Assembly: GCA_048939765.1 (NCBI GenBank)
Contig: JBHLPF010000003.1
Span: 45,936-109,935, forward strand
Direction: 5' to 3'
DNA length: 64,000 nucleotides
Source of the DNA: Promethearchaeota archaeon
Lineage (GTDB): Archaea; Asgardarchaeota; Thorarchaeia; Thorarchaeales; Thorarchaeaceae
Shown here: positions 3,116-28,714 of the stretch, one piece after another
Numbering within the stretch: the stretch's first letter is position 1
Layout: every line of letters begins with the position of its first letter
Translations under genes and position numbers: made by a program
The notes under the pieces: generated by a model
The model's input: the letters and a program-made list of their open reading frames with translations, nothing else
Database searches by the model: none
What the model was told of the DNA's origin: nothing

Positions 3116-3117
3116 TG

Positions 3118-4314: not shown

Positions 4315-4373
4315 TCCAAAGGAATGTCCATTATCTCGCCTTAAGACTGTTAGGCTAGGTTCAAAAATGAAAG

Positions 4374-4409
4374 GACACCGGAGCACACATACAGGCACTC
4401 CGGATTGTC
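4374..4409. other. intercistronic stem-loop
   Basis: GACA-CCGGAG ... CTCCGG-AT-TGTC inverted repeat directly downstream of the 4417 stop. Confidence 0.35.
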
Positions 4410-4416
4410 TATAAAA

Positions 4417-5748: not shown

Positions 5749-5755
5749 TTGGTTC

Positions 5756-6880
5756 TCACTCCTCTACAAGAGATGACTGTGCAAGATCCAAGATTAACTC
5801 GTCTAGCTGAATTACTTCCAAGTCTGTTTCACGTGCACAGTAGCTCAAGTTCTTATAACATGATATGCATGTAGTAATCATTCCATCGACACCTAGCTCA
5901 ACGGCTTCATTAACCCTTCTCTTCCCAACATCTTCAGACAATTGCGGGTCTAGGACCGTGAGGAATCCGCCACAGCAATTTGCGTTCTCTTTATTATTAA
6001 GCAGCTCTACGAACTCTAGATTCGGAATTGCTCTGATGATCTCTCTTGGTTGCTCATATATGCCAAGTGCCCTTCCAAGATGACAGCTGTCATGAAATGT
6101 ATAGCTTCCTTCTTTCCCCTTGAAAGTCAAGACACCATTTCGCACCATATTTGAAAGAACATCGACAGTATGGTGTATCTGAACATCGAATTCCGGAATG
6201 ACTTGCGCATAGTGTTCAGCTAGTGTTCCATAGCATCCTCCACAGCCTGTAACGATATGTTGGATGCCTGCTTTCTTGAACATCTCATAGTTCTCGCGAG
6301 CTATTTTCTCAAAGCCAGCATCGTCACCAGCCCAGTATGACATGAGACCGCAGCAGACCTCACTGGGAACATACCCTGCGTCGACCTTCAGTTTCTGCAA
6401 CATATCTACAACCATCTCAGGTTGATCTGGAAACCAGAAGCTACCCATACAACCACTGAAGATGGCTGTATTGGATTTCTCGGGCAATTCCAAGTCTTCA
6501 GCCCAGATGGTTCGGTCATCGGATTCGTATCCTATGAATGGCGTTCCTTCCTTGTCAAGCCAATCAATGACTTTCACGAGACTCTCTGACATTTCTCCTC
6601 CAGTCTTGAGGAGATTGGCCTTAGCTTCATGCCATATGTGAGTCACAGGCACTCCAGCTGGACAAATAGCTTCGCACCTTCTGCAATCAGCGCAATATAG
6701 CCTCTGCAGCAATTCCTGAGGGGGATTTCTCATTTTTTCTCTATATGCCCTAAGTGCTCTGATCTTTCCTCCCGGACTGTCGAGTTCAGAGCCCAACTCA
6801 ATATACATTGGGCATGTATCGCGACAATAGTTGCAGGACCCACAGTGGCGCATAGTTTCCTTGTCTATGTCAACTCTCAT
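5756..6880 (-). CDS. HdrD/GlcF-like Fe-S protein (2x[4Fe-4S] + 2 CCG domains)
   Basis: CGSCNYCRDTCP, CADCRRCEAICP, VCCG, FHDSCHLGR, NCCGG, TCISC. Confidence 0.88.
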   Translation of the reverse strand: MRVDIDKETMRHCGSCNYCRDTCPMYIELGSELDSPGGKIRALRAYREKMRNPPQELLQRLYCADCRRCEAICPAGVPVTHIWHEAKANLLKTGGEMSESLVKVIDWLDKEGTPFIGYESDDRTIWAEDLELPEKSNTAIFSGCMGSFWFPDQPEMVVDMLQKLKVDAGYVPSEVCCGLMSYWAGDDAGFEKIARENYEMFKKAGIQHIVTGCGGCYGTLAEHYAQVIPEFDVQIHHTVDVLSNMVRNGVLTFKGKEGSYTFHDSCHLGRALGIYEQPREIIRAIPNLEFVELLNNKENANCCGGFLTVLDPQLSEDVGKRRVNEAVELGVDGMITTCISCYKNLSYCARETDLEVIQLDELILDLAQSSLVEE

Positions 6881-6892
6881 TGTCTTCTCACC

Positions 6893-8353
6893 TCATCTCC
6901 CCACATATCTTGATAGGCGCCTTATTCCAGCGGCCATTAGGAACAACACATTCATCCTGAAGTATGACGTCATGCATGAGGTCACACGGTCTGGATTCAT
7001 TATATTGCTCCGATCCCACTTTTCTTTTGCTGCCTTCATTAATTCTAATCTCTCTGGATATGCACGCTTCATATAGATTGAATTCTGAAGGCCAATCGTG
7101 TAAGGCCCACCGCCAAGCGAAATAGCCTTCTTCACCATTTTATGCAATATGCCTTTGCTGCTTATGAACTTGAGATACTGGTCGGGATTCAGCATTGCCA
7201 TCAATTCAGCTCTAACCTTTCCTTGACTTCCGAGCATTGCGAACCAGATTGCAGGCACCTTGTGTGATTTCTTGTAGGACTCATACCTGTTGAGTAGGTC
7301 ATAGAGCTTGTCTACCTCAAGTGAAACCTCCTGAAACATCAAGGTGTCACAGTGCTCCTTGGGGTTGAACTCGCTGTCATAACGTAGACTCCAATCATGA
7401 GCTGCATATTCAACACCAAGTTCCATTCCTCCATTGTCTGCAATTGTCCTCTTGAGTTCATCTATTGGGACACTTTCCGGCTGATTGGGATAGACCGCTG
7501 TCAGGACATAATTGCCCTTCTCTAGTGGATTGCTGTAGCTCTGGAAGTCCTTGTCTGCAATCTTGAGATGGATCGGTTTCTGATCAATAGCAGCAATTTG
7601 CCGCATTGCATTGCACACATGCTCCAGGTGGTCAAATCCGTAGCTGAACGGAATGAAATCATCGGGCTTATCATGGATTCTCATTTTCACCTCTGTGATG
7701 ACTCCAAGTATGCCATAAGACCCAAAGAATAGTCCTATCTCATCGCCACTGATTGTGACCAATTCGCCATCAGCATTCACGACCGTCAATTCAAGGATAT
7801 TCTCGATCAGAGCTCCGTAGTAGGGAGTGCCAATGCCTGCTGTACCCCCGCATCCGATCCATCCAGCGATTACAGCTGATTTAGCGCTAGTTGGATAAAT
7901 GCCAATGGTCTTCCCTTGTTTTGCGAGCTCAACATCGAGTCTGTCGAAGGGAACCCCTGGTTCAAGTCTGACATAGCCTTCATCTGTATTGATTTCAAGG
8001 ATGGCATCCATCCGCTTGATGTCAAGAGATATCCCGCCGCGTGTTGGGCTCGATGACCCCAGGCAACTTGATGCACCGCCTCTTGGGATGACGGGAATAC
8101 CGTGAGCAGCCGCAGTTGTAACAACTTCCCTCACCTCATCCACATTCTCGACTCGTACAACATAGTCGACCAGATACTTCCCTTTCCAGCGGTAGTGGAA
8201 TTGTGGGAGGGCTGCAGGATCGCCGCTATACACTATCCTCTCCAACAGCATGTTCGAAACTCGATCCGGACTTACGGCTGCTGCAAGGTCTCGCATGACT
8301 TGGTCATCATATTTTGGAGTCTGGGTTTCCACTTGTTCTTCAGTCATAATCAT
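6893..8353 (-). CDS. FAD-binding oxidoreductase (VAO/GlcD-like)
   Basis: PRGGASSCLG, LEPGV, PTSAKSAVIAG, GSYGILGVITEV, DRSNIMNP; start taken at TGATG overlap 8353 (or 8347), since the longer track start overlaps the upstream gene. Confidence 0.85.
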   Translation of the reverse strand: MIMTEEQVETQTPKYDDQVMRDLAAAVSPDRVSNMLLERIVYSGDPAALPQFHYRWKGKYLVDYVVRVENVDEVREVVTTAAAHGIPVIPRGGASSCLGSSSPTRGGISLDIKRMDAILEINTDEGYVRLEPGVPFDRLDVELAKQGKTIGIYPTSAKSAVIAGWIGCGGTAGIGTPYYGALIENILELTVVNADGELVTISGDEIGLFFGSYGILGVITEVKMRIHDKPDDFIPFSYGFDHLEHVCNAMRQIAAIDQKPIHLKIADKDFQSYSNPLEKGNYVLTAVYPNQPESVPIDELKRTIADNGGMELGVEYAAHDWSLRYDSEFNPKEHCDTLMFQEVSLEVDKLYDLLNRYESYKKSHKVPAIWFAMLGSQGKVRAELMAMLNPDQYLKFISSKGILHKMVKKAISLGGGPYTIGLQNSIYMKRAYPERLELMKAAKEKWDRSNIMNPDRVTSCMTSYFRMNVLFLMAAGIRRLSRYVGR

Positions 8354-9549
8354 CACATCAAGAATCCAACCGCATTGAGATAGAATCCTGTCAGCCCGAG
8401 TACTGTCCACATCAATACTGTAGGTAGGCCGAGATTGCATGTTTTCCACCCAGCGATATGGGTGATGAGCGCTAGTGTTCCGAGTATCATGCTTAGTATT
8501 CCAACCCAGATATGCCAAGAGTGAATGAATAGCATCAGCTCAGCTGGGTTGATAAGATAGGATGGGTTCAAAGCAGTCCAAGCTCCAGGGTCTTCCTGAA
8601 ATAGCCAAAGCACGTTGATTAATGTGAGGAAGTAGGCTATTGTTAGCATATACCCGTGAAATCTGGTGAATCTCTCTTCATCATAGTATTCGAGTGCTGT
8701 GCCAAGATACGCTAGTATCAATGCTGGAGCACCCAAATAGAACCCATAGTGCAACTTCGGTAGCGGAATGGCCTGCACTGTGTATTGTAAGGGCGGATCA
8801 GTGAATACTTCTATTCCACCTACATCCCTCGCGACTATCCGAAACTCTACTGTAGTGCCAGCCGGATATCTTGGAATAGTTGCCTGATAGTATCCACCAA
8901 CTTGTGTCATTGTAATGTTGGTCCACTCAGTAGTTGTGTTTGCCCTATGTTGTAGCACTGCTGAAACAATACCTGCTTCCGAGCTTACATTCGCCGACAC
9001 AAGTACACTCTCATTATCGAACGGAGACGTTGGCTCAATAGTGAAGTCTGCTATCGATGGTCCTTCTCCCACATGAATCACATTCACAATGATTGTAGTT
9101 CCTACCGCATAGCCACCGTTACCTGCAGCCCATATCTCAAGGGTATATGAGCCCGCTATCGCAGGCGCAGTCAATGTATAGTTGACTTCCATCTCCAGAG
9201 GGTCTGAATCAAGGTCACCTGCTAAGTTATCACGAACCAATCCATCACTGGGAATATTGAAGAGGGCATTGCTCTCCAAATTCAAGGGGAACTTGATGAC
9301 TAGCGTAGTTGGCCCTGATGTTGCTGAAGCAGTGACAATAAACGAGAATTCCGCTCCTTCTTCAACATCTACCGAAGTGTCCGTGCTTACTGTCATTCCA
9401 GTCGCAGTAGTATGACATCCCGTATTATCGCAGGCTCCCTGTTGAGTCACATAGGCAACAGTAGCTTGAGACGCTATGACGAGGGCTATGGCAGCAGCTA
9501 ACACAACAATAATGGCATATCTTGATTTCCGCTTCACATCTGTCACCAT
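8353..9549 (-). CDS. membrane protein: Cx4CH motif + two Ig-like domains + C-terminal His-containing 4-TM (cytochrome b561-like) domain
   Basis: N-terminal signal/TM, CDNTGCH, beta-sandwich segments, TM His residues (LHYG, RFHGY, HSWHIW, ITHI). Confidence 0.6.
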   Translation of the reverse strand: MVTDVKRKSRYAIIVVLAAAIALVIASQATVAYVTQQGACDNTGCHTTATGMTVSTDTSVDVEEGAEFSFIVTASATSGPTTLVIKFPLNLESNALFNIPSDGLVRDNLAGDLDSDPLEMEVNYTLTAPAIAGSYTLEIWAAGNGGYAVGTTIIVNVIHVGEGPSIADFTIEPTSPFDNESVLVSANVSSEAGIVSAVLQHRANTTTEWTNITMTQVGGYYQATIPRYPAGTTVEFRIVARDVGGIEVFTDPPLQYTVQAIPLPKLHYGFYLGAPALILAYLGTALEYYDEERFTRFHGYMLTIAYFLTLINVLWLFQEDPGAWTALNPSYLINPAELMLFIHSWHIWVGILSMILGTLALITHIAGWKTCNLGLPTVLMWTVLGLTGFYLNAVGFLM

Positions 9550-9693
9550 AGGTTGTGCACTGATGCACAGCGGCAAGCTACCCAGTAAAAAACCTTACCG
9601 GATGTTATGTATCATCAGATTTGAGTTTCATGTTCGTTTTCGAAAGTTTTGCTGTGGAATCACTTTGAGTTACCATCTGCAACCGAAATCTAC

Positions 9694-10182
9694 TCAATAA
9701 TCGTGGTTCTTCCATCTGTAGAAGTCTGTACCTCTCCAATAGGACAATATCCTTGGAGTAATCCGAATTGCAATTCTGTTTCCCAAGGGATATCCGGCGC
9801 CGAGGAAATCTAGATACTTGGAGAGGAAGTTGATCGTAATCTCTTCATCAACAAGCTCCATCTCCACCATCATGGCGCGACCCTTAATCATGACTCCGCG
9901 ATTGGCTGCAGGTAGTACTGCGTTTCGCTCATCCACGGTTACACACACTTTTGTGTTCTTTCTGATGTTTGCAATCTTGTGGCTACCTCTTGTGGTAATC
10001 ATATAGATCTGCTTTGTAGGATCATGCCAGATATAGAACATCGCAGTTAGGTGCGGCAAGCATCCTGCTTCTGATGTTCCAAGGTATGAGAAAAAGCCTG
10101 ACTTGAGGATACGCAAAGCTTCCTCTGGAATCTCCTTCGCGATTCTTATTGGAGCACCATGTGTCTTGGCTAGGAACATCAT
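9694..10182 (-). CDS. pyridoxamine 5'-phosphate oxidase family (FMN/F420/heme split-barrel) protein
   Basis: YLGT..PHLTAMFY, SHKIANIRKNTKVCVTVD, GVMIKGRA, RITPRILSYW. Confidence 0.85.
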   Translation of the reverse strand: MMFLAKTHGAPIRIAKEIPEEALRILKSGFFSYLGTSEAGCLPHLTAMFYIWHDPTKQIYMITTRGSHKIANIRKNTKVCVTVDERNAVLPAANRGVMIKGRAMMVEMELVDEEITINFLSKYLDFLGAGYPLGNRIAIRITPRILSYWRGTDFYRWKNHDY

Positions 10183-11436
10183 TCACACCCTCAGTATCTG
10201 CGGCTTAGCCTCTCTCCAGTATGTTATCTTCTCAGGCTCGACCCTCACCATGACTCTGGATACGAATGGTTTGTTTTGCCATGCAAGGGGGAGGTCCTTT
10301 TCTTGTGTGTCATAGTACTTCATGTATCGTGGATATTTCCTACCAAAGAGAGACCGTACTCTGAGCATCCATAGTCCATAAAGATACAGTCTGAATAGTC
10401 CTAGTGGAGTTACCTCCCCAAGAATCATCGCCTTTCCGCGAAGCATAACAGCTCGATTTTTCATTACATTCTTACTGTCTCTCAGATCTACAAGGATAGC
10501 GATGTTGGGGTTCTTCTTGATCTTCCGATATTTCGCAGAGGCGAGCGATATTCCGAAATACAAGTACTTTCCATCATAGACAAAGATCACTGGAGTCACA
10601 TGACTCTGGTTCTTTTCACAAAGAGCAACATATGCAAATCGTTCATTGTAGAGGATGCTCTCCACATCGGGCGGGAACCATGGAACTCGTTCCATAGCCA
10701 ACAGACTTGCTCCCGATAGTGACAGGACAGCGGCGAAGAAGGCACCCAGTCCATACAGCAGCATTGGTTCAATGCTTGCCAGAGGCAGCAACAGGACGGC
10801 TGATGCAGCCCAATACAGATTGACTGAGTCCAAATACTTTAGGGTCCGAACTTCCGAATATGCAGTGTATTCAAGTCCCCTTCTCCGTCTTGCGGCGCGG
10901 CTGAGTGATATAGACCTCCTAGCCGCAAAGAGTGTGGTAATCAACGATAATCCAATTCGATAGGAAACGTCCCAAATAAGAACTGCAACTAGTGCCATTA
11001 GTATTGGGTTGCCAAATCCTGTTCCTAGGTTCTCAGCAAGAAGTGTCGGATTCAGGAGGATGAATCCCCAAACACCAGCGAAAAGCGTGATTCCCATTGC
11101 AAGCTCGTACCGCCTATCCAGAAGAAGTCGGTTTTTGTATGACTCAAGAACTCTTCTTTCCTCATCGTTAGTTGGATTTCTTAAGCGTCTCAGCCACGGG
11201 ATGACATAAAGACATCCAGCGGACCATACAACAGTATATAGAATTGCCAATGTACCGTAGATGGCTGAGGTCAAAGGCATTTCGAAATACAGGAATCCAG
11301 CAATCCCTATCGCTTCGACCAATAGCAATTGGGCCAAAACGTCGTAAACTGGCGGGAGCCAGCTAAATGGAGGAACTCTGTCAACTATCTCCTCATAAAT
11401 CCATTTTCTCTCGGCATGCTGGCTCGTCCCTTGCAT
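10183..11436 (-). CDS. multi-TM membrane domain fused to PPOX-family split-barrel domain
   Basis: ~6 TM helices, then HVTPVIFVYDG..AKYRKIKKNPNIAILVD..AVMLRGKA..RVEPEKITYW. Confidence 0.75.
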   Translation of the reverse strand: MQGTSQHAERKWIYEEIVDRVPPFSWLPPVYDVLAQLLLVEAIGIAGFLYFEMPLTSAIYGTLAILYTVVWSAGCLYVIPWLRRLRNPTNDEERRVLESYKNRLLLDRRYELAMGITLFAGVWGFILLNPTLLAENLGTGFGNPILMALVAVLIWDVSYRIGLSLITTLFAARRSISLSRAARRRRGLEYTAYSEVRTLKYLDSVNLYWAASAVLLLPLASIEPMLLYGLGAFFAAVLSLSGASLLAMERVPWFPPDVESILYNERFAYVALCEKNQSHVTPVIFVYDGKYLYFGISLASAKYRKIKKNPNIAILVDLRDSKNVMKNRAVMLRGKAMILGEVTPLGLFRLYLYGLWMLRVRSLFGRKYPRYMKYYDTQEKDLPLAWQNKPFVSRVMVRVEPEKITYWREAKPQILRV

Positions 11437-11539: not shown

Positions 11540-12781
11540 CTACTCATAGATCTCCTCTAACCCATCCCACTCCAAGCCTAATGCCTCAGCCATTAGAACT
11601 GCAAGGTCCTTAACTACCTTACTCGATCCTGCTTGAGGCAGTTGATCATGCATGAAGTCAACACATGAAGGGCAAGATGCAGCAACTACTGAAGCACTTG
11701 TCTGTTCAATATCGTCCACTTTCAACTTGCTGATCCGGTTGGCAAACTCGGCGTCAATAGCTCGTAGCACACCGCCCGACCCGCAGCAGAAACAGTTGCT
11801 CTTGTTATGCGGCAGCTCCTCGAAAGTCACCCCAGGCAGGTACTCCAAGACCTTTCTAGGCTGTTCATAGAAACCTGAGTTCCTTCCCGCGTCGCAGCCG
11901 TCATGAAATGTCACAGTAATGTCTAGAGGATTGGTGAATTCCAACTTGTTGGCATCAATAAGCTCCTCAAAATACTCCGGTCCGTAGATGATTTCGAATG
12001 GCGGGTCAATGCCAAGGAACTCGTGATATTCATGGGCCCACATCTTATAGCAGCCCGGGCAATTTGTCATAACTCGTTCCACCCCGAGTTCCTTGTATTT
12101 CTCAATATTATGCTCAGCAAATTGACGAGCGGTCTCGAAGTCGCCTGTCATGATCATAGGCGCTCCACAACAGACTTCATCTTCACCAAGAAATGTGTAC
12201 GACTCGCCAGCTTTGTCCATGATCAGAGTGGTGGCAATTGTTGCCTGAATGGAGACTCCACGGAATGAGGAGGCACACCCGAAGAAGAATGCAGTCTTTG
12301 CCTCTTGGCCCATTGTATCTAAAAGGGCGTCTTCATCTGGATGCCAATACGACCATCCCTCGACTCTATCCATCTGTGACTGTCCCTGAATGTTCTGGCT
12401 GTCAAGTAGGGTCTTCTTTGCCATCTCAAGTTGCTCAGGCCAGAGACCCATCTTCTGGAAGTCTGACCTCATCAGTTGGTAAATCTGAACAAAAGGAATG
12501 TCCACCTGGCAAATCTCTTCGCATCCTCCACAGAGAGTACATCCGAAAACCGCGTCGCGAAGACCCTCTAGACCTTCCGACGCCTTCAGGCTTCCCTGGG
12601 CCAATGAACGGGCAATGATCATCTTCCCTTTTCCTGAGTAGCTATCTCGGCGCTTCACCTTGTAGGTCGGACAGGCGCCATGGCCAACTTGGCAGAAGCT
12701 ACATTGCGCACAAGTATATGGCATATCTTGAAGGTTATGCTTCTTCAGTGATGGGAATTCCATGATGTCATTCACAACCAT
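11540..12781 (-). CDS. HdrD/GlcF-like Fe-S protein (2x[4Fe-4S] + 2 CCG domains)
   Basis: CAQCSFCQVGHGACP, CTLCGGCEEIC, VCCG, NCPGC, FHDGC, FCCGSGG, SCPSC; start uncertain (12763/12781/12829). Confidence 0.88.
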   Translation of the reverse strand: MVVNDIMEFPSLKKHNLQDMPYTCAQCSFCQVGHGACPTYKVKRRDSYSGKGKMIIARSLAQGSLKASEGLEGLRDAVFGCTLCGGCEEICQVDIPFVQIYQLMRSDFQKMGLWPEQLEMAKKTLLDSQNIQGQSQMDRVEGWSYWHPDEDALLDTMGQEAKTAFFFGCASSFRGVSIQATIATTLIMDKAGESYTFLGEDEVCCGAPMIMTGDFETARQFAEHNIEKYKELGVERVMTNCPGCYKMWAHEYHEFLGIDPPFEIIYGPEYFEELIDANKLEFTNPLDITVTFHDGCDAGRNSGFYEQPRKVLEYLPGVTFEELPHNKSNCFCCGSGGVLRAIDAEFANRISKLKVDDIEQTSASVVAASCPSCVDFMHDQLPQAGSSKVVKDLAVLMAEALGLEWDGLEEIYE

Positions 12782-13000
12782 CGGGACACGTGGCTCGACA
12801 TGTTTTGCCGAACGAGTTATGCCCTGCAACAGCCCTTAATATCTGTGCTCGTTGCACAATGGCATAGCTTTCGTCACACTTTAAAACTTGTTAGGTAAGT
12901 TGTGTCAAACGCCATTCCCTCCCTCTCTCGCTAGGTTTTTATGGAGCATGATTCCACGACCGTGACCTGAGAGCAGCTTCATCTCTTGGAGAGAGTCCAC

Positions 13001-14941
13001 ATGACACTGAAGCCAAAGCTAGTGACGGAACTCGCTGAGGTCTATGAAGACCGAGTGATCACAGAGAAGCATGAGCTCGTCATCCATGGCATGGATGTTG
13101 GTTCTTTGCCCAAACAAGTGGGCTGGTTAATGAACGTCAAGCCTGATGCGATTGTGCAGCCTCAAACCCCTGAAGAGATCAGGTTCCTGTACGAGTTTGC
13201 AAACAAGTACAAGGTTCCTCTAATACCAAGGGGGGCAGGCACTTCGGGCTATGGTGGTGCAATTCCTCGAAAGGGAGGCATCATTGTTGACATGCGTGTT
13301 ATGGACAAGATCGTTGACATCGATGAAGAGAATCTGACTGTCACTGTTGAGCCCGGACTCTCATGGGCGAATCTGCAATTTGAGCTGAACCGAAAGAACC
13401 TAGACCTCCGTTGTTATCCCTCTTCTGGACTCTCTGCAACAATCGGGGGCTGGGTGGCCCAGGGCGGCGATGGAATTGGGTCTCTCAAGTATGGGAACAT
13501 CAACAAGAACGTGGTTGCTTTCGAGGTGGTCTTGCCAACTGGAAAGATGATCAAGAGCAAGGACTGTGACCTGTTCTGTGACACAGAGGGCATTCTTGGA
13601 ATCATCACTAAGGTGACTCTGAAGATAAAGCCCTTCACTCCTATCAAGGTCATTGTTTCGAGCTTCCCTGAGAATTATCTGATGGTTCATGCTATAGAGA
13701 AGATACTCGAAGATGGTCCTCTTCCATTCACGATAAAGTTCGAAGAAGCAAAGTACACAGACCTGAAGAAGAAGATCTGGGACAGTGAGGAGAAGTTCCC
13801 ATTCCCGGTTCATCACTGCACGATTATGGTTGCATATGACGGAGATGAGGAGGAGATTGCAGAGGGCTTCAGAGTTGTAGAAGAAGTCACAAAGATGTAC
13901 AAGGGAACTGTTTATGATGAGCATGTGTCTACCCACGAATGGAGTGACCGCTTCTACCCAATGAGAGTCAAGAAAGCTGGTCCTACCCTCGTTGTTGGCC
14001 AAGCATTTGCACCGCTTGAGAACCTAACCGCAATACTTGATGACTGGCAATTTGAACAGGGATCCGCTAAAGCTGGTATTGATGGCTACGTAAACTCTTT
14101 GAATGCTGTCACCATGATGGGCTATTTCCTCGAAGATGAACGGCGCAGATTCTTCATGTTATCCTGGGCTCAGAGCTTTGTTGTGTTCAAGATTGCACAG
14201 CGGCATGGCGGTCATGCTCACTCGACAGGAATCTGGTTCGCCAACCTGGCCGGTCAATACTTTGGTGCACAGCGACTGGCAAAGATACGTGCAGCCAAGC
14301 TTAAGTACGACAAGAAGGAGATATCAAATCCTGGGAAGGTGTTCGCCTATTGGCTACCACTTATTCTCAAGTTTGGTAAGTATTTCCTCTGGATATTCTA
14401 TGACCTATTCAGGAATGGGTTTGGCAGGATTGCTCCAATACTTCTGAAGTGGCTCCAGAACCTGCCGCCACTCAAGTGGGTGCTGCGATGGGGCCGAGCA
14501 CATAGTCCATGGCCAGTGCAATACGGATTAGGATGTTGCATGGTCGATGGTGCCGCTGGAATCGCGTCGAGGTGGGACTTTGAACGATTCGGGATGCTCC
14601 CCCTCTTTGGCCCGCGGCAGTGTGATGTGCTATGGATATCTGGGTCTCTTACCAAGAAGATGGCTCCGCGACTGCGAAGAGTCTACGAGATGATGCCAGA
14701 TCCCAAGTTCGTTATCGCCTTCGGACAGTGCGCGGCCAGTGGCGGCGTCTTTTGGGACGGATACTCGCTACAGGTTCCGCCTGAGTCTGTAGTACCTGTC
14801 GACGTCTATTTGCCCGGGTGTCCTCCGAAGCCTTCAGACTTCGTCAGGGCTCATCTGATACTCCAGAACAAGATTCGTGCAGGCACGACACACTGGCAAA
14901 TGAAGTATGAAAACCAGGACGCAATGGGGATGATCCAATGA
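13001..14941 (+). CDS. nuoB: fusion: FAD-binding oxidoreductase (VAO/GlcD-like) + complex I subunit NuoB
   Basis: PRGAGTSGYGG, PSSGLSATIGG, TEGILGIITKVTL in the first ~450 aa; from ~14480 GLGCC, DFERFG, PRQCD, RVYEMMPDPKFVIAFGQC, PVDVYLPGCPP (NuoB N2 ligands). Confidence 0.92.
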   Translation: MTLKPKLVTELAEVYEDRVITEKHELVIHGMDVGSLPKQVGWLMNVKPDAIVQPQTPEEIRFLYEFANKYKVPLIPRGAGTSGYGGAIPRKGGIIVDMRVMDKIVDIDEENLTVTVEPGLSWANLQFELNRKNLDLRCYPSSGLSATIGGWVAQGGDGIGSLKYGNINKNVVAFEVVLPTGKMIKSKDCDLFCDTEGILGIITKVTLKIKPFTPIKVIVSSFPENYLMVHAIEKILEDGPLPFTIKFEEAKYTDLKKKIWDSEEKFPFPVHHCTIMVAYDGDEEEIAEGFRVVEEVTKMYKGTVYDEHVSTHEWSDRFYPMRVKKAGPTLVVGQAFAPLENLTAILDDWQFEQGSAKAGIDGYVNSLNAVTMMGYFLEDERRRFFMLSWAQSFVVFKIAQRHGGHAHSTGIWFANLAGQYFGAQRLAKIRAAKLKYDKKEISNPGKVFAYWLPLILKFGKYFLWIFYDLFRNGFGRIAPILLKWLQNLPPLKWVLRWGRAHSPWPVQYGLGCCMVDGAAGIASRWDFERFGMLPLFGPRQCDVLWISGSLTKKMAPRLRRVYEMMPDPKFVIAFGQCAASGGVFWDGYSLQVPPESVVPVDVYLPGCPPKPSDFVRAHLILQNKIRAGTTHWQMKYENQDAMGMIQ

Positions 14942-15578: not shown

Positions 15579-15938
15579 TCATTCACGAAGCCAAGCAAAC
15601 GCAGCAAACGCCAGGAGCAAACCGAAGGCAACCCATGCAAAGAGGAGAATACCTGCTAGGTCAGTGTACTGGGTGATGTCCAAATATGCGTGCACACCAC
15701 CAAAGACTCCAGCAGCCATCGTGGCACCTATGCGGCCACTGCGGGTTGATGCGAATGCAATACCAAGAGTCGCTACTACGAAGAACAGCCCACTCAAGAA
15801 GATGAAGTATTGGAAGGTGAGATCAATCGGTGCTACAGTCAAGATGATCCAGAAGTATGCCCCAATGAATCCCATTCCGATTAGAAGCGCGAGGTAATAG
15901 AAGAATGTACCCTCTTCTTTGTAAGACAATTGTATCAC
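15579..15938 (-). CDS. small 4-TM membrane protein
   Basis: four hydrophobic segments, occupies the gap inside the nuo cluster. Confidence 0.65.
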   Translation of the reverse strand: MIQLSYKEEGTFFYYLALLIGMGFIGAYFWIILTVAPIDLTFQYFIFLSGLFFVVATLGIAFASTRSGRIGATMAAGVFGGVHAYLDITQYTDLAGILLFAWVAFGLLLAFAAFAWLRE

Positions 15939-16271: not shown

Positions 16272-16730
16272 TTGCAGACAGATAGGCTGTTTCTCCAATT
16301 CATCCCGGTCTTGGTTTGGGCTATTCTTGTAATCGTTCTGATTGTTATCATGCTGTTGGCATCCTGGGTGCTGCGACCCCATATACTCCAGAACTCAGAG
16401 AAGACTTCTACATACGAATGTGGAGAAGAGCCTATTGGGCCAGCACGAATGTCATTCCCCTATAGCTACATCATCTACACGATTCTCTTTGTCATCATAG
16501 ACGTAATGGGCGCATTTCTCTGGCTACTTACTGTTTCACCGCTACGATTGAATCCCATAGTCGCTTGGCAGACGTTCATCTTCGTCGTGATTATTATGGG
16601 TGCAATTGGATATGCGCTGAGGTATCTGCCTCAGACTTCGTTTAATGGTAAGGAAATCCTCGAGGCATATCGCGCTGCAAAGGCAAAGCGTCTCGAGAAA
16701 GCGCACGCATCGGGGAGGGAGCATCATTGA
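16272..16730 (+). CDS. nuoA: complex I-like subunit A
   Basis: KTSTYECGEEPIG loop, ILFVIIDV, 3 TM; GGAGGG SD before TTG. Confidence 0.92.
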   Translation: MQTDRLFLQFIPVLVWAILVIVLIVIMLLASWVLRPHILQNSEKTSTYECGEEPIGPARMSFPYSYIIYTILFVIIDVMGAFLWLLTVSPLRLNPIVAWQTFIFVVIIMGAIGYALRYLPQTSFNGKEILEAYRAAKAKRLEKAHASGREHH

Positions 16731-17398
16731 TGCAAGGATTTGAGTCCGCGTTCGAGTCAGTTGAGTTTCTGTTGATTGCAGGAATAGTCATTGTACTGGC
16801 TTACCTCGCACTGGAACATAGGGAGATTGTGTATGCCGCATTCTTTTTTGGCTTCATGGCGTCGTTCGTAGCTGGATTCTTCCTTCTATTGGAAGCGCCT
16901 TTTGTTGCCGGTATGCAGATTGCGGTGTACACTGGAGGCATAAGTGCGTTAATCATATTCGGCGTTCTCCTGTTGCCACGAGCACAAGACTCCACACTCG
17001 AGGCAATAGAGTCGCCCCACGCCAAGAAAGTTGGCATACTTGTATCCGGCTCCATAATGTTCCTCTCTGCAATTCTTGCACTGACGTTCCCATGGAACGA
17101 AACGATTCCAGAGAGCACAATCGATTCTTCAAACAACGTGGCTCTTCTCGCTGAGTGGTTGTGGGGAGATCATGGAATCTATGTTCAACTCATCGCACTC
17201 ATCATTGTGACATCCCTCGTAGGTGTCATCGCGCTCATGAAGATGGATAAGGCAGAGCTGATGAAAGATGTCGTCGCCGAGTTCGGTATCGAAGCAGCAC
17301 CAGAACCTGAAGCGCCTGAGCCGGAAGAACCTCCGGAGCCTGAGGAGACCTCTGAGGAAGCTTCTGAGTCGGAAGTCAGTGAGGAGGTGGCCGACTAA
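16727..17398 (+). CDS. nuoJ: complex I-like subunit J
   Basis: IVYAAF, LLEAPFVAGMQIAVYTGGI; acidic C-terminal tail. Confidence 0.9.
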   Translation: MMQGFESAFESVEFLLIAGIVIVLAYLALEHREIVYAAFFFGFMASFVAGFFLLLEAPFVAGMQIAVYTGGISALIIFGVLLLPRAQDSTLEAIESPHAKKVGILVSGSIMFLSAILALTFPWNETIPESTIDSSNNVALLAEWLWGDHGIYVQLIALIIVTSLVGVIALMKMDKAELMKDVVAEFGIEAAPEPEAPEPEEPPEPEETSEEASESEVSEEVAD

Positions 17399-17718
17399 TG
17401 GTCCCGCTTTCTTGGTATCTTGCTGTTGCATTCATCTTGATAGGCCTTGGTGCCTATGGGATGATGGTGAAGAGGAACCTCATCAGAATTCTCATTGGTG
17501 CTGAAATCATGGGGAATGGAGTCAGCATCGCTATAGCTGCTTTTGCAGTCTACAGCCCTACCTTTACGCTGACAGGACAGGCTCTCATTATTCTCTTGAT
17601 ATCAGTTGCTGCAGCTCACACTGCTCTAGCTCTAGTCTTGATGCTTGCTTACAACAGGCGACATGGAACAGTGGATCTTGGAAGACCAATCTCACAGGAG
17701 GAGAAGCTGGATGTCTGA
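17398..17718 (+). CDS. nuoK: complex I-like subunit K
   Basis: RNLIRILIGAEIMGNG, GQAL, VAAAH..ALALV. Confidence 0.9.
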   Translation: MVPLSWYLAVAFILIGLGAYGMMVKRNLIRILIGAEIMGNGVSIAIAAFAVYSPTFTLTGQALIILLISVAAAHTALALVLMLAYNRRHGTVDLGRPISQEEKLDV

Positions 17719-18238
17719 AGGTACTCCTATGTCTGCAGCCACATTTGGAAGACAGATTGTCAACAAGTTTCCTGGCGTTGAATGTACGCCAAAGGAAGAT
17801 GGTATCCTTGAGTGCATTGTGCCAGCAGACAGGATTAGGGACGTTGTCGGGATGATTGACGAACAGATAGAAGATGCCTTTCCAGAGAGCGTCTTTGGAG
17901 TTGACCTTCAGGAAGACAAGTATGAAGTCATCTACATATTCTGGTCTCGAACCAATAGGACACTGTATCACCTTCGTGTTTCACTTGAGGGCACCAATCC
18001 CGAGGTGGACACAGTGTGTGACATATTCCCCGGCATGGAGTGGCATGAGAGAGAGACCTGGGAGATGTTTGGAATCAACTTCAAGGGCCATCCTGACCTC
18101 AGGCTACTTTTGCTTCCTGAGGAGCTGGAAGGGAAGTATCCTCTTAGAAAGAGCTTCGTGACAGATAGATCACGGCTCAATGAGGCTGATAAAACGCCTC
18201 CAAAGCCCAAGCCACCAGAAGGAGGTGCAACCGAATGA
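17711..18238 (+). CDS. nuoC: complex I-like subunit C
   Basis: WHERETWEMFGINFKGHPDLRLLLLP..YPLRKSF. Confidence 0.92.
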   Translation: MSEGTPMSAATFGRQIVNKFPGVECTPKEDGILECIVPADRIRDVVGMIDEQIEDAFPESVFGVDLQEDKYEVIYIFWSRTNRTLYHLRVSLEGTNPEVDTVCDIFPGMEWHERETWEMFGINFKGHPDLRLLLLPEELEGKYPLRKSFVTDRSRLNEADKTPPKPKPPEGGATE

Positions 18239-19371
18239 GCCCTGACATCATAGATGAAACAACTGAAGTCTGGTTTGGGCCACAGCACGTATCCGCGCAC
18301 GGATGGGCGGCCAAACTGACTCTTGTTGGAGACTTTGTAGTGGAATGTGATCCGAACGCCGGATACTTCCATAGATCTGCTGAGAAGTGCTTGGAGTTCC
18401 GGAACTTCCAGCAAGGGTCTCTCATCATGGAACGGCTCTGCATGCTTGAGGCATTTCTAGCTGAATATCCCTACATCATGGCGGTTGAGAAGATAGCAGG
18501 GCTCGAAGTACCTGAACGAGCCAAGGTCATACGTACGATTATGATGGAGGCCAGCCGAATTCATTCATTGCAGTTCTGGTGGGGTCAATTCTCGGCTGAG
18601 CTCGGCTTATTCGCTATGTTGCTGTGGCCGTGGGTTGACCGTGAGTTCTTCCTCGACACTTTCGAGGAGCTCAGCGGTTCTCGTCATGCTGTTTCTTTCA
18701 GCACTCCTGGAGGAATAAGATATGATTTCACTGACAAGGTGCTCAGGAAGCTCGATATTGCCTTGGAGCGGTTTGAGGATCGGATGCCTATGATGCGAGA
18801 CATGCTCATGGGTAGTCCTACTTTCAGAGCAAGGACAGAGGGCATTGGTCAGTATACGCTGAAACAGGGGCTGAAGTACGGCTTGAGTGGACCACCGATT
18901 AAAGCATGTGGTCTACCAATGGACCTACGAAAAGATGCCCCTGACCCGAATCTAGCCTACGATATGATCGATTGGGAAGTTCCAATTACAGAGAGCAAGG
19001 AGCATCCTGGGGAGAGTGATGCCTACGATAGGATGGTCCAGCGATTCAAAGAGATGGAGACCTCAGCAGATATAATTCGAAAACTCATTCCATTAATTCC
19101 TGAGGGCCCGATTGTTGACCCCAAGGCACGAGCCAAGGCAAACAGACTTCCAGAGGGTGAGGCATACGGTCGTGTCGAAGGAACAAGAGGAATCTCAACT
19201 CTCTGGCTTAAGACCACTGAAAAGGCGCAGACTCCATACAGGGCCAAGATACGCGGACCCTGTTTCAACTCTTACTACTCATTGAAACATCTGGTCCCGG
19301 GTGCGAAGTTTGCAGACTTCATTGCCATTTTTGGATCGCTTGATCCATATCCAGGGTGGTGGGATCGCTGA
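18235..19371 (+). CDS. nuoD: complex I-like subunit D (no NiFe ligands)
   Basis: FGPQHVSAHG, GYFHRSAEK, ERLCMLE, EGTRG, PYRAKIRGP, GSLDPYPGWWDR. Confidence 0.92.
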   Translation: MSPDIIDETTEVWFGPQHVSAHGWAAKLTLVGDFVVECDPNAGYFHRSAEKCLEFRNFQQGSLIMERLCMLEAFLAEYPYIMAVEKIAGLEVPERAKVIRTIMMEASRIHSLQFWWGQFSAELGLFAMLLWPWVDREFFLDTFEELSGSRHAVSFSTPGGIRYDFTDKVLRKLDIALERFEDRMPMMRDMLMGSPTFRARTEGIGQYTLKQGLKYGLSGPPIKACGLPMDLRKDAPDPNLAYDMIDWEVPITESKEHPGESDAYDRMVQRFKEMETSADIIRKLIPLIPEGPIVDPKARAKANRLPEGEAYGRVEGTRGISTLWLKTTEKAQTPYRAKIRGPCFNSYYSLKHLVPGAKFADFIAIFGSLDPYPGWWDR

Positions 19372-20516
19372 TGGGAGGTGTCATGTTGCAAATAGACTTC
19401 TTCGCTTGGCTTCAAGGAATCCCTTCGTGGATCTACGGTGTGATTCAGTGGTTCTTCTACCTTGTCAGCGGGATATTCTACTGGATATGGGGGATATTCA
19501 CTTGGATCTGGGCAGCTCTATTTGATGTAGCCAACTTCTTTTTCCTGATTCGAGCAATACTATTCCCGGGTCTTGTCTTCATCCTCATGACGATTATCTT
19601 CGCAGTCTGGTATACTCGCAAGCTCTGGGGTAGAATTCAAGACAGACGAGGTCCTTTCCACCTAGGGAAATACGGAGGTCTCCAGCTCTTCGCAGACGCA
19701 ATCAAGCTTGTGGGGAAAGAGACTATCATTCCCGATAAGGCGAGGCGTTGGATGTACAGATTTCTTCCATCCTTGCTGCTTCTTGTCGTACTCATACCTT
19801 TCGCATTCATTCCATGGGATCCAGTATGGTACATCGCTGACCTCTCAGTCAGCCTCGTGCTTGTCTTTGCATTCTTGACAGCTGTTCCTGTAATTGCGTT
19901 GCTGTCCGGATGGATAAGCGGTTCAAAGTACACCCTAATTGGTGGGTTTAGAGCAGCTAACAATCAGTTCGCTAGCGAGATTCCGCTAATCATCTCATCC
20001 GTTGGTCCTGCGATGATTGCTGGGTCTCTTAGCGTAATGGGAATCTCGATGGCTCAGTCTAATATCTGGTTCATCTTCCTGCTACCAATCAACTTGGCCA
20101 CCTTCTTGGTCGCATCTATCGCATCCGTTGGTACATTTCCATTCGATGCCCCAGTTGCTGACTCGGAGGTCATCTTTGGTTGGAGGACTGAGTTCAGTGG
20201 TATTTACTTCACGCTCACTTATTTCGCGGAGTTCGCCGAGCAGGCGCTTTACTCAGCACTCATAGTTGCACTATTCCTTGGCGGGTTCCAAGGACCAGAT
20301 TTCTTGCCAGGGAGTGTGATATTCATCATCAAGTTCCTGATCGTATTCTTCTTTTTCGTCGTTGTGACTTCATCGTTCCATCGACTTAGACAGGACCAGA
20401 TTGTATACTTCTGCTGGAAGTATCTACTTCCATTGTCAATCCTGAACGTTATGCTTGTGATGTTGGGAATCGCCAACATACCCCTGCTACAAGCAATTAT
20501 TGGAATAGGAGGCTAG
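19371..20516 (+). CDS. nuoH: complex I-like subunit H
   Basis: RKLWGRIQDRRGP, GLQLFADAIKLVGKE, SKYTLIGGFR, PFDAPVADSE..GWRTEFSG, RLRQDQ. Confidence 0.93.
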   Translation: MGGVMLQIDFFAWLQGIPSWIYGVIQWFFYLVSGIFYWIWGIFTWIWAALFDVANFFFLIRAILFPGLVFILMTIIFAVWYTRKLWGRIQDRRGPFHLGKYGGLQLFADAIKLVGKETIIPDKARRWMYRFLPSLLLLVVLIPFAFIPWDPVWYIADLSVSLVLVFAFLTAVPVIALLSGWISGSKYTLIGGFRAANNQFASEIPLIISSVGPAMIAGSLSVMGISMAQSNIWFIFLLPINLATFLVASIASVGTFPFDAPVADSEVIFGWRTEFSGIYFTLTYFAEFAEQALYSALIVALFLGGFQGPDFLPGSVIFIIKFLIVFFFFVVVTSSFHRLRQDQIVYFCWKYLLPLSILNVMLVMLGIANIPLLQAIIGIGG

Positions 20517-20522
20517 AGCAAG

Positions 20523-20954
20523 ATGGGATTCTTCAGAAACCTAGGTGACATATTCCAGATATTGAGACATATATTCCGTCAAGTGATGTCCCGTCCATTC
20601 ACGTACTTCTATCCATTCGAGGACAGGGAATATCCCGAGAGGACTCGTGGCAGGCACATTCACGTGCGAGAGAATTGCACAGCCTGCATGCAGTGTGTAC
20701 GAGCTTGTCCTGTTGTAGCTATTAGTATCGATAAGAGTGATAAGAAGTTCGAGAAGGACGCAGCCCTAACCTTTGATTATACAAGGTGTATCTTCTGTGG
20801 CTTATGCGTTCAAGCCTGCAGATTTGATGCACTATTTCACACCCAGGTGGTAGATATCAGCGAGGGAGAGAGGGAGGACTTGGTCTACGGTCCTGACAAG
20901 ATAGAGACTCTCGATAGAGACCCGCTTGAGTGGCGTGGAAGGAGGTTCCGTTGA
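20523..20954 (+). CDS. nuoI: complex I-like subunit I (2x[4Fe-4S])
   Basis: TYFYPFE..RTRGR, CTACMQCVRACP, CIFCGLCVQAC. Confidence 0.93.
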   Translation: MGFFRNLGDIFQILRHIFRQVMSRPFTYFYPFEDREYPERTRGRHIHVRENCTACMQCVRACPVVAISIDKSDKKFEKDAALTFDYTRCIFCGLCVQACRFDALFHTQVVDISEGEREDLVYGPDKIETLDRDPLEWRGRRFR

Positions 20955-22471
20955 TGCAGCTAGCATTCGAGTTCCCATTTATGACCTTGTCCTTACTAGT
21001 CCTCTTTATCGGAGGGCTTTTGATCTACCTCTTCCGCGGTCGACTCGAAAAGACGTCTGGAAAAATCGCAGTTGGCTTCTCGGCGGTGGGGGCATTGCTA
21101 ATGGTGCCTCCATTCTACCGCATCCTGGTCGAAGGTGGTCGGGCGGCTGAGAAGGTTTCGTGGTCAGTTGTGCTCGGAGAGTTCGGTCTCTATTTGGATG
21201 AGATTGCCTTCCCAATTACGTTCGCAGTTGTTGTCTTGGGATTCCTTTCAGTCATCTATGCCGTAGGTTATACTGAGCATACTGAGAACAAGCCCACCTT
21301 CTTCGCAAACACACTATTCTTCATAATGGGCATGCAAGGAGTGACGCTTGCCACCAATTTGCTGGAGTTCTTCATTTTCTGGGAAATCATGCTTGTCCCA
21401 TCATACTTCCTGATTCTGTTTTGGGGCTTGCCTGAGACCCGAAAACGAACCGCCCTCAAGTTCTGGCTCTATACACAGGCTGGAGCGGTCTGTATTCTGA
21501 TCGCCCTAGGACTTTTGTACTTCTTCACAGGCACCTTTGAACTCTACACCATACTAGCAATGGCTCCTGCCATATGGTCAGACCTCCGACTATTGCAGAT
21601 TATTTTCATCTTGTTCGCTGCTGGCTTTTTAGTCAAGATGGCAGCTTTCCCTGTGCATTGGTGGTTGCCTCCAGTTCACGCCGAAGCTCCGACTCCTATC
21701 TCAGTTCTGCTATCCGGAGCTATGATTGAGACTGGTGCATATGCTCTCGTCCGTTTCGGAATCATAACGCTTGGACCTGCAGCTGCGTCTCTCTCATTCT
21801 GGATTGGAGTACTTGGTGTGGCTACGATGTTCTACGGAGGAGCTATGGCGCTCGTCCAGAAAGACATCAAGAGACTGCTAGCCTACTCATCGGTCTCCCA
21901 GATGGGCTACGTTTTGTTTGCACTCGGAATGATAACCACAATGGGGGTATCCGGTGGTCTATTCCACCTCATCAATCACGCCTTCAGCAAGGGTGTCTTG
22001 TTTATGACTGCTGGAGCGGTGATTCATCAGACTCATCTAAGGGACGTCGACAAGATGGGCGGTCTCTCAAACAAGATGCCCATCACCGCATTTGCCGCGG
22101 CTATCGGCGCAATGAGCATCGCAGGGAGCCCCCCTCTCTCTGGATTCGCCAGTGAGTGGATGATGTTTCTCGGCGGCTTTGACGCCGCTCAGATGGGACC
22201 AGGAGGCCTTGCAAGACCTGAGTTCTTCTTCCTGTCCATCTTGGCTGTTTCAAGCTCCATATTGAGTGCCGGCTACATGCTCCGGTATCTCTGGAAGGTC
22301 TTTCTTGGGCCTCATCCAGCTGAACTGGAGGATGTCAAGGAGAGCTCGGACTGGATGACTGCTCCAATGATCATCCTTGGAGTTCTCATCGTGTTATTTG
22401 GAATATTCCCAGGATTGGCACTGGATGTCATAGTTCCTGGCGTAGAAGGAATATCTACCCTGCTTCCATGA
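20954..22471 (+). CDS. extra antiporter-like subunit (NuoM/MrpD/HyfB family)
   Basis: FFIFWEIMLVP, VKMAAFPVHWWLPPVHAEAPTP, KRLLAYSSVSQMG, NHAFSKG, PPLSGFASE. Confidence 0.88.
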   Translation: MQLAFEFPFMTLSLLVLFIGGLLIYLFRGRLEKTSGKIAVGFSAVGALLMVPPFYRILVEGGRAAEKVSWSVVLGEFGLYLDEIAFPITFAVVVLGFLSVIYAVGYTEHTENKPTFFANTLFFIMGMQGVTLATNLLEFFIFWEIMLVPSYFLILFWGLPETRKRTALKFWLYTQAGAVCILIALGLLYFFTGTFELYTILAMAPAIWSDLRLLQIIFILFAAGFLVKMAAFPVHWWLPPVHAEAPTPISVLLSGAMIETGAYALVRFGIITLGPAAASLSFWIGVLGVATMFYGGAMALVQKDIKRLLAYSSVSQMGYVLFALGMITTMGVSGGLFHLINHAFSKGVLFMTAGAVIHQTHLRDVDKMGGLSNKMPITAFAAAIGAMSIAGSPPLSGFASEWMMFLGGFDAAQMGPGGLARPEFFFLSILAVSSSILSAGYMLRYLWKVFLGPHPAELEDVKESSDWMTAPMIILGVLIVLFGIFPGLALDVIVPGVEGISTLLP

Positions 22472-24801: not shown

Positions 24802-24802
24802 A

Positions 24803-28579: not shown

Positions 28580-28714
28580 GCCAAGCTCCTTCCCGGAATA
28601 TCTCTCATTGATGACTAGGTCCAGCATATAATCGCATTTCAGACATACAGATGGAAAACAGTAACAAATCAGAAGATAATTGCGGGTCGGGAGTGACTCC
28701 ATCCCCAGCGGTTT

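Follow-up and report, generated by a model that had tools for sequence, protein, structure and literature searches.

A GlcD-like flavoprotein fused to the NuoB subunit of a complex I-like enzyme in a family of Thorarchaeota

Introduction

What does a flavoenzyme do when it is joined to the N-terminus of NuoB, a core subunit of complex I? This question is raised by the gene at 13001-14941 of a 64,000-nucleotide stretch of DNA (the window) from a Promethearchaeota archaeon of the family Thorarchaeaceae (GenBank assembly GCA_048939765.1, contig JBHLPF010000003.1, positions 45,936 to 109,935). Usually nuoB lies between nuoA and nuoC and encodes a free-standing protein of about 160-220 amino acids (aa). 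The NuoB described here is not free-standing; it is joined C-terminally to a 455-aa flavoprotein, in a separate transcription unit upstream of nuoA. Public records name the fused protein 'NADH-quinone oxidoreductase subunit NuoB'. The original prediction, made from the DNA letters alone, proposed that a substrate dehydrogenase of the GlcD/VAO family is tethered to the quinone-binding module (Q-module) of the complex and that the resulting enzyme pumps ions with electrons taken directly from an organic donor. Here we ask whether the fusion is genuine, what its flavin half resembles and which electron route would fit the complex.

Results

The fusion gene encodes the sole NuoB of a complex I-like pump

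The fusion gene encodes the genuine, sole complex-I-type NuoB of a complex-I-like ion pump. The start codon is the ATG at 13001, where the homologues open with MTLK, and this gives a protein of 646 aa; the open frame itself covers 12986-14941, and the residue numbers of domains and linker used below refer to this 651-aa frame. As predicted, a flavin adenine dinucleotide (FAD) oxidoreductase, a linker and NuoB form one uninterrupted frame, in which profile searches recovered FAD_binding_4, FAD-oxidase_C and Oxidored_q6 together (Table 1). The NuoB half exceeds the cut-off of the NCBIfam NuoB subfamily NF005012 (residues 498-635, 168.6 against 116 bits) as well as those of TIGR01957 (160.8 against 142.7 bits) and PF01058 (84.6 against 27). 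It aligns to residues 24-160 of Thermus thermophilus Nqo6 (E 3e-41) and also to cyanobacterial NdhK, the homology beginning at Nqo6 residue 24, about 20 residues ahead of the paired cysteine ligands. The four expected cysteine ligands of iron-sulfur (Fe-S) cluster N2 are all present, CC, C and C being in register with Nqo6 C45/C46, C111 and C140, which we take to be the ligand positions. Part of this numbering is from PMC7684303.

The window holds no other nuoB and no NuoEFG or FpoF, again as predicted, and the remaining PF01058, PF01512 and PF04432 matches lie on other contigs. All other Oxidored_q6 genes of this genome and of four near-complete relatives adjoin homologues of NiFe large subunits, and were rejected as the 'real' NuoB since they are hydrogenase small subunits beside their large subunits. 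In a tblastn survey no nuoB was found between nuoA and nuoC in any of ten genera. The genera with orthologues of this NuoD (72-98% identity) are the same as those with the fusion, and nine genomes of at least 90% completeness (genera g4, g5, g12 and g13) have neither. Fusion and NuoD disagree in seven fragmented genomes; six of these have a completeness of 88% or less, and G149, the seventh (95% complete), has only a contig-end piece of the fusion.

Together with the fused NuoB the operon provides subunits A, B, C, D, H, I, J, K, L, M and N plus a second M, with a membrane arm of the NuoA/J/K type. The genes are ordered as fusion, a gene for a protein with four transmembrane helices, a small gene on the opposite strand, nuoAJKCDHI, a NuoM-like gene, NuoL, NuoM and NuoN. 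The tblastn survey gave the same layout across the ten genera; a few loci are interrupted by 3-6 kb of inserted DNA, and one genome has its nuo genes 26 kb away.

The fusion is conserved in one family

Searches for the same architecture in NCBI, JGI, ENA and Logan assemblies returned about 46 sequence clusters (71-95% identity, 644-667 aa), all with the same three domains and mostly labelled Thorarchaeota. A further search covered 300 other genomes of the phylum, 76 from the family of the window and 224 from elsewhere. The fusion was present in 54 of the 76 (45 full-length, nine partial at a contig end or frameshifted) and was not found in the 224 genomes outside the family. There, the best match to the flavin half was 39% identical, and free-standing NuoB proteins (59-65% identity) stood in ordinary contexts with no adjoining GlcD-like gene. 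A split ancestor, with a GlcD-like gene beside a free nuoB, was looked for in the two nearest free-NuoB contexts and not found. By the public labels, the fusion is restricted to one Thorarchaeota family.

Could the fusion be an artefact? The assembly might be chimeric, a stop or frameshift might have been missed, or NuoB might be translated on its own from a start inside the gene. A few observations point that way. In one genome (G155, C5:93241-95186) the gene is split into two overlapping frames, matches in three others (G203, G158 and G124) are each flagged with one in-frame TAA or TAG, and the linker region contains in-frame GTG codons. Sequencing error or recoding may account for the split and the in-frame stops, and the break in G155, at residues 432-440, falls inside the flavin domain and away from the domain junction. 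The identical junction recurs across independent assemblies (about 46 clusters and 45 genomes), which rules out a chimera or a missed stop. The fusion is also conserved as one frame and not, the pattern that would have told against the original prediction, as two genes accompanied by a cognate nuoEFG. Production of a separate NuoB from an internal start is not supported either, as there is no Met, none of the GTG codons is preceded by a Shine-Dalgarno-like motif and the linker is conserved as protein, without indels. We therefore regard an artefact as extremely improbable.

Linker and predicted structure

An amphipathic, Trp/Phe-rich linker had been foreseen and was located between the cap domain and NuoB (Table 1). 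It has a hydrophobic moment of 0.4-0.6 and, with a peak Kyte-Doolittle value of only 1.28, it is not a classic transmembrane helix. Across the 46 fused clusters column identity in the linker is 86%, on par with the domains; the FAD-binding and cap domains are each about 83% conserved across genera. An AlphaFold model of the fusion had a mean predicted local distance difference test (pLDDT) score of 83.7, with values above 90 in the flavin domain, and placed the linker in two helices (456-477 and 479-491) continuing into NuoB helix 496-506. When the N-terminal half was compared with known structures by Foldseek, mouse D-lactate dehydrogenase (mLDHD) was matched with a template-modelling (TM) score of 0.84 (E 1e-32), and alkyl-DHAP synthase was matched too.

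The flavin half has the fold, not the signature, of a 2-hydroxyacid dehydrogenase

Judged from its sequence, the flavin half is a flavoprotein of VAO/GlcD fold that is not recognisable as a D-lactate or glycolate dehydrogenase. The predicted GlcD/VAO family thus holds for fold and domains, and fails where a canonical GlcD or D-lactate dehydrogenase is meant. In the alignment, mouse LDHD His398, His405 and Glu442, presumably the metal-ligand triad, are replaced by Tyr, Val and Ala, with the next His retained, and the His-His-Glu triad is missing across the whole archaeal subfamily. One of the Foldseek matches bears the PDB title 'H405A mLDHD'. The glcD equivalog TIGR00387 gave 127.7 bits against a cut-off of 567.9, in a match limited to the FAD domain (residues 56-305). 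Because the triad is replaced and the equivalog score is far below its cut-off, the substrate cannot be assigned as a D-2-hydroxyacid.

The closest homologues outside Thorarchaeota are FAD/CCG-type proteins (33-40% identity), YdiJ-type GlcD+CCG fusions among them, and the ESM Atlas returned generic FAD-oxidase clusters only. The subfamily has a signature of its own, EW.ERFYPMR.K..GP plus DER, which is invariant even in homologues of 34-39% identity. That the cap is conserved like the FAD domain argues for a working active site. The flavin domain of the fused polypeptide contains no Fe-S cluster, so its FAD could not be wired to N2 without the protein encoded next door.

A constant CCG/Fe-S partner and an unfused relative

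Divergently from the fusion runs a gene for an HdrD/GlcF-like CCG/Fe-S protein, with two [4Fe-4S] motifs and two complete CCG motifs (PF02754 twice, Fer4_8); its likely start is a Met 16 codons into a TTG frame. Its named matches were all below cut-off (TfrB, LdhH, GlpC, TmcB, HmcF, GlcF, HdrB and DsrK). The gene adjoins the fusion in this divergent arrangement in all ten genera. Downstream of it lie genes for a DUF7530 domain joined to a PNPOx-like domain and for a second PNPOx-like protein (Table 1), both kept beside the CCG gene in loci of genera g2, g9 and g14; this pair might partner the CCG protein at the membrane.

An unfused homologue of the flavoprotein (499-503 aa, 55-57% identity) was found in genus g13, in genomes that have no nuo cluster, and the same CCG gene adjoins it. 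The locus shares a wider neighbourhood (MutS, geranylgeranyl reductase, polyprenyl synthase and UbiA) with one fused locus, and the protein retains a hydrophobic tail ending in PPLKW where the NuoB homology starts. In a tree of flavin domains the fused forms make up one clade (support 82/96) that is sister to the g13 pair, a topology that agrees with one fusion event as well as with truncation in g13 at a later time. C-terminal tails that are hydrophobic or span the membrane are found in distant archaeal relatives too, and in a paralogue encoded in the window (1409-3115), and for this reason the ancestral flavoenzyme was probably membrane-associated.

In two loci of other genera (L007 and L008) the CCG and flavoprotein pair stands beside genes for geranylgeranyl reductase, polyprenyl synthase and UbiA prenyltransferase, which could serve lipid or carrier synthesis; in L008 a gene for a UbiE-type methyltransferase lies just ahead of nuoA. 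Upstream in the window, a redox island on the minus strand (1409-8518) encodes further flavoproteins and CCG/Fe-S proteins and is partly syntenic in G236. Two signal-anchor proteins (within 34-1251 and 8353-9576, minus strand) with a single CX4CH or CX5CH motif each gave no Pfam match and are possible extracytoplasmic heme proteins by their motifs. One of these CXnCH proteins runs on into a His-rich domain with four transmembrane helices, and a free His-rich protein of four such helices is encoded at 34-540.

The NuoD site and the energetics of the complex

In NuoD the equivalent of Nqo4 His38 is retained (GPQHVSAHG), while that of Tyr87 is Met (RLCMLE against RMDYLH). Among proteins of solved structure its best relative is MbsL of MBS, the membrane-bound sulfane-sulfur reductase of Pyrococcus furiosus (E 3.6e-59), ahead of all complex I subunits. 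The MbsL Cys85 equivalent is kept, the Cys385 equivalent is lost, and the C-terminus reads DPYPGWWDR. The residue features of MBS (C85 plus C385, a proximal cluster with three Cys) were taken from PMC7684303. The complex is accordingly not classed with the group 4 [NiFe] hydrogenases, MBH or MBS, as only the first Cys remains and NuoB has the full CC motif. From these residues, the acceptor site looks intermediate between MBS and complex I. The predicted tethering to a Q-module thus stands as far as the fusion to NuoB goes, and not for a canonical Q-module, NuoD lacking Tyr87 and being closest to MbsL.

A search for quinone synthesis gave no MqnA or MqnD and no convincing pathway in this genome (88.5% complete). 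The sole UbiD gene has AcnX and a GHMP kinase as neighbours, which marks the archaeal mevalonate route, and the one gene for a UbiE-family methyltransferase stands alone. The NuoL part from the KWY motif to the C-terminus measures about 108 aa against about 80 in NdhF, that is, some 28 longer by a rough count on one alignment; a 26-residue HL insertion has been reported in NuoL of '2M' complex I (PMC9040806). By our own estimate, about 300-375 mV per electron pair is needed for five ion paths working against 120-150 mV. With four antiporter-like subunits the number of ions moved per electron should be high, and forward drive by a mid-potential organic donor is hence unlikely. The predicted pump from an organic donor to quinone is doubtful for this reason. 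Electron flow from ferredoxin to a mid-potential acceptor, or gradient-driven reverse flow, would fit.

Other candidate electron inputs in the genome do not track the complex

A genome-wide search for nuoEFG and fpoF, which the original prediction had called for, gave a NuoEFG-like cluster and an FpoF-like gene, and neither follows the nuo operon. The cluster (C80:46000-61000, locus L038) encodes NuoE-, NuoF- and NuoG-like proteins together with a DHODB-Fe-S and a GltD/NfnB-like protein, and its NuoF-like protein has extra Fer4 domains as in HydB/Hox-type proteins. The NuoG-like gene occurs in 23 of 81 family genomes, is present in the nuo-less genus g5 and is missing from many near-complete genomes with both fusion and nuo operon. 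Owing to this patchy distribution, mismatched to nuo, the cluster was rejected as a cognate N-module, and the view of an 11(+1)-subunit operon without cognate NuoEFG is borne out at the level of genera.

The FpoF-like protein (contig C86, 372 aa, Fer4 + FrhB_N + FrhB_C) is encoded in all 16 genera including those without nuo, a distribution that does not tie it to the operon; it may conceivably still act as a donor. An FrhB-like gene on C96 was rejected because it is FdhB, beside FdhA. With NuoD the FpoD model scored 233.6 bits against a cut-off of 600. The genome has three CofE-like (F420 ligase) genes, on C85, C49 and C69, and no CofG above cut-off at its 88.5% completeness. An F420-linked donor for the complex is conceivable as well.

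Other genes around the fusion

The start of the gene for the four-transmembrane-helix protein overlaps the stop of the fusion (ATGA). The protein directly follows the fusion in nine of ten genera (33-45% identity) and is a candidate extra subunit. The small conserved membrane protein (28-61% identity) keeps its position and orientation in nine loci. Long acidic tails rich in Pro and Glu close both NuoJ and the four-helix protein. The nuo operon is followed directly by a gene for a Ras-family small GTPase, of a kind typical of Asgard genomes.

Table 1. Positions of the fusion gene, its parts and neighbouring genes in the window
Feature	Position	Strand	Remarks
Fusion gene	13001..14941	+	646 aa from ATG at 13001; one open frame 12986-14941
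FAD_binding_4 (Pfam)	residues 53-190, ~13142-13555	+	E 2.5e-38
FAD-oxidase_C cap (Pfam)	residues 221-452, ~13646-14341	+	E 7e-7
Amphipathic linker	residues 453-485, 14342-14440	+	between cap and NuoB
NuoB part	14441-14938	+	Oxidored_q6 (Pfam) residues 531-622, E 6e-24
HdrD/GlcF-like CCG/Fe-S protein	11540..12781	-	407 aa; divergent from fusion
DUF7530 domain (6 transmembrane helices) joined to PNPOx-like domain	10183-11436	-	downstream of CCG gene
PNPOx-like protein	9694-10182	-	same strand as CCG gene
Membrane protein, ~4 transmembrane helices	14938..15483	+	acidic PEPE tail; start overlaps fusion stop
Small conserved membrane protein	15579..15938	-	between fusion unit and nuoA
nuoA	16272-16730	+	
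nuoJ	16727-17398	+	
nuoK	17398-17718	+	
nuoC	17645-18238	+	
nuoD	18235-19371	+	no NiFe Cys pairs
nuoH	19356-20516	+	
nuoI	20523-20954	+	both [4Fe-4S] motifs intact
Extra NuoM-like subunit	20930-22471	+	fourth antiporter-like subunit
NuoL	22477-24801	+	774 aa
NuoM	24755-26347	+	
NuoN	26344-27822	+	
Ras-family small GTPase	28028-28702	-	directly after nuo operon
GlcD-like flavoprotein	1409-3115	-	2-3 C-terminal transmembrane helices; paralogue of fusion flavin half
CCG/Fe-S proteins	3118-4398, 5756-6880	-	redox island
Amine-oxidase-like flavoprotein	4417-5748	-	redox island
GlcD-like flavoprotein	6893-8518	-	redox island

Discussion

A possible second electron port

Taken together, our results lead us to favour, tentatively, a complex with a second electron port beside N2 and ferredoxin at NuoI, that is, a reversible ferredoxin:substrate ion-translocating oxidoreductase. 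Flavoprotein and CCG protein together would make up a redox module, with FAD and Fe-S clusters, that lies at the membrane surface. The linker is predicted to run directly into NuoB helix H1, ahead of the N2 ligands, and would anchor this module where the peripheral arm meets the membrane arm, next to N2 and the substrate cavity. The other port would be the intact clusters of NuoI, taking ferredoxin or perhaps the FpoF-like protein. The complex would translocate ions as electrons pass between the low-potential carrier at NuoI and whatever substrate couple the flavin/CCG module serves, and it would need neither NuoEFG nor, probably, a canonical quinone. In the forward mode ferredoxin would reduce the acceptor and ions would move out; in the reverse mode a mid-potential organic or thiol donor would reduce ferredoxin while ions move in, and the fourth antiporter-like subunit would suit either mode. 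Support for the second port comes from the other candidate inputs, which do not track the complex, from the constant CCG partner and from the conserved linker. The co-occurrence of fusion and nuo operon, the conserved cap, the intact cluster motifs of NuoI, the MbsL-like NuoD, the quinone pathway that was not found, and the extra NuoM-like subunit with the lengthened NuoL also speak for it. A precedent is the proposed docking of HdrD on an Fpo-like complex (PMC6147122).

Several points weigh against this reading. The single-chain AlphaFold model does not reliably place the two domains relative to each other, and the position of NuoB helix H1 at the membrane interface is one that we assume from the T. 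thermophilus structures. The flavin domain is without an assigned substrate, and the electron path from the FAD/CCG module to N2 or NuoI is one that we infer. Pumping in the relatives of the complex depends on chemistry within the cavity, and it is unclear what would trigger it if electrons tunnelled past N2 to an outside cluster. With a genome that is 88.5% complete, the missing quinone pathway is weak evidence. The full statement, a quinone-free complex-I-type pump with five ion paths that links ferredoxin at NuoI to an organic or thiol substrate through a flavin/Fe-S module by N2, is doubtful; if it holds, the complex would belong to a new class of energy-converting enzyme in Asgard archaea.

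Other electron routes and functions

Alternatively, the flavoenzyme and a CCG wire may replace NuoEFG or FpoF as an input module, so that electrons from an organic donor would pass through FAD and Fe-S clusters to NuoI/N2 and finally reach a quinone-like lipid acceptor within the NuoD/NuoH cavity while ions move outward. No cognate N-module competes with this route, a GlcD+CCG module of about 95 kDa matches the NuoBCDI arm in size and could reach NuoI, and the His38 equivalent in NuoD and the complex-I-type tandem Cys in NuoB are kept. The nearest relatives of the flavin domain are the YdiJ-type GlcD+CCG fusions, which reduce quinones, and the possible extracytoplasmic CX4CH/CX5CH proteins upstream might offer a high-potential outlet. 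NuoD however lacks the Tyr87 equivalent, no quinone pathway was found, the metal triad of 2-hydroxyacid dehydrogenases is absent, and by our own estimate a donor at about -190 mV calls for an acceptor more positive than about +110 mV, for which we have no candidate. On balance this route is unlikely. We give somewhat less credence still to mere co-localisation, in which the GlcD/CCG enzyme reduces a membrane carrier and the carrier is re-oxidised at the mouth of the cavity to which the enzyme is tethered, with the ion gradient powering reverse electron transport to ferredoxin. Hydrophobic C-terminal tails throughout the subfamily, and the 2-3 transmembrane helices of the paralogue at 1409-3115, fit enzymes of the membrane surface, the partner resembles CCG proteins of the HdrD/GlpC/LdhH kind, and the g13 enzyme, present without any nuo cluster, can work alone. 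Complexes with an extra NuoM have been proposed for reverse electron transport (PMC9040806). Yet a diffusible carrier needs no covalent tether, the NuoD site is non-canonical and we identified no carrier biosynthesis.

The flavoprotein might also exchange no electrons with the complex and be a structural, assembly or regulatory appendage, comparable to GLDH of the VAO family on plant complex I. PDB 7a24 contains plant complex I subunits together with GLDH, a FAD_binding_4 protein, and the canonical catalytic triad is lost in the flavin domain here. An idle domain is nevertheless hard to reconcile with FAD-binding and cap domains that are both about 83% conserved across genera, with the private EW.ERFYPMR.K..GP and DER signature held invariant at 34-39% identity, and with a redox partner gene always kept next to the fusion. 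We consider an appendage improbable.

Comparison with known systems

The inputs of NDH-1 and Fpo-type complexes, ferredoxin and FpoF, are separate docking proteins. Cyanobacterial NDH-1 and the archaeal Fpo/Fqo and Fpo-like complexes have the same A, B, C, D, H, I, J, K, L, M, N core without NuoEFG and the same tandem-Cys N2 motif, and the best PDB matches of the fused NuoB are NdhK and Nqo6. The complex described here differs from them by a flavoenzyme bound covalently at the NuoB N-terminus, a nuoB outside the nuoA-nuoC slot and a NuoD without the quinone Tyr. For the Methanomassiliicoccales an Fpo-like complex with HdrD has been proposed (Lang et al. 2015, cited in PMC6147122). As this proposal is summarised there, a pump free of an N-module oxidises ferredoxin and passes electrons to a soluble CCG protein, which recalls the constant CCG neighbour of the Thorarchaeota complex. 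That proposal is a hypothesis with no physical link between the partners, whereas here a gene fusion provides one through a flavoprotein, and a CoM-S-S-CoB substrate has no support in our material.

Similar to the NuoD subunit in this study, MBS of P. furiosus (PDB 6U8Y; PMC7684303) has Cys85 and no Tyr87 equivalent. In contrast to MBS, the Thorarchaeota protein keeps the His38 equivalent and loses that of Cys385, NuoB has adjacent Cys, unlike MbsJ with its shortened motif of three Cys, and a membrane arm of the NuoA/J/K type stands in place of the Mrp type. With the '2M' complex I of Nitrospira and relatives (PMC9040806) the complex shares the additional NuoM-like subunit and a lengthened C-terminal part of NuoL, although the '2M' enzymes are bacterial, quinone-linked and equipped with NuoEFG, whereas the Thorarchaeota complex has no cognate NuoEFG, probably uses no canonical quinone and carries the flavoprotein fusion.

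With GlcDEF, D-lactate dehydrogenase and YdiJ-type enzymes, the flavin half has in common the fold (TM score 0.84 to mouse LDHD), both FAD domains and the pairing with Fer4+CCG. It differs from these FAD/CCG 2-hydroxyacid dehydrogenases in its Tyr/Val/Ala triad and in being fused to NuoB instead of to a CCG protein. GLDH binds an assembly intermediate of plant complex I and passes its electrons to cytochrome c. In both cases a FAD_binding_4 flavoenzyme is attached to complex I, but GLDH is a separate protein (PDB 7a24). Fusions of NuoB were given as NuoBC and NuoBCD in a survey of archaeal gene fusions (PMC11237513), and a flavoenzyme-NuoB fusion is not among them. NuoBC, NuoBCD and NuoCD join core subunits to each other, those with NuoB at its C-terminus, and the fused NuoB described here is C-terminal to an unrelated enzyme on its N-terminus. 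In the literature that we searched on the fusion and on Asgard complex I, no description of a flavoenzyme-NuoB fusion was found.

Significance

Complex I and its relatives are thought to evolve by the swapping of modules, and the known input modules are separate docking proteins. Here, a catalytic flavoenzyme is covalently joined to NuoB, the core subunit with the last Fe-S cluster, in a complex that has an additional pumping subunit and an acceptor site that looks intermediate between the sulfur-reducing MBS and true complex I. The 'NuoB' label in public records hides the fused half from metabolic reconstructions, and the host belongs to the Asgard archaea, whose energy metabolism is poorly understood and bears on models of eukaryote origin. 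If the module is indeed wired to the Fe-S chain, the fusion would represent a new form of energy conservation, or of reduced-ferredoxin supply, in anoxic sediments.

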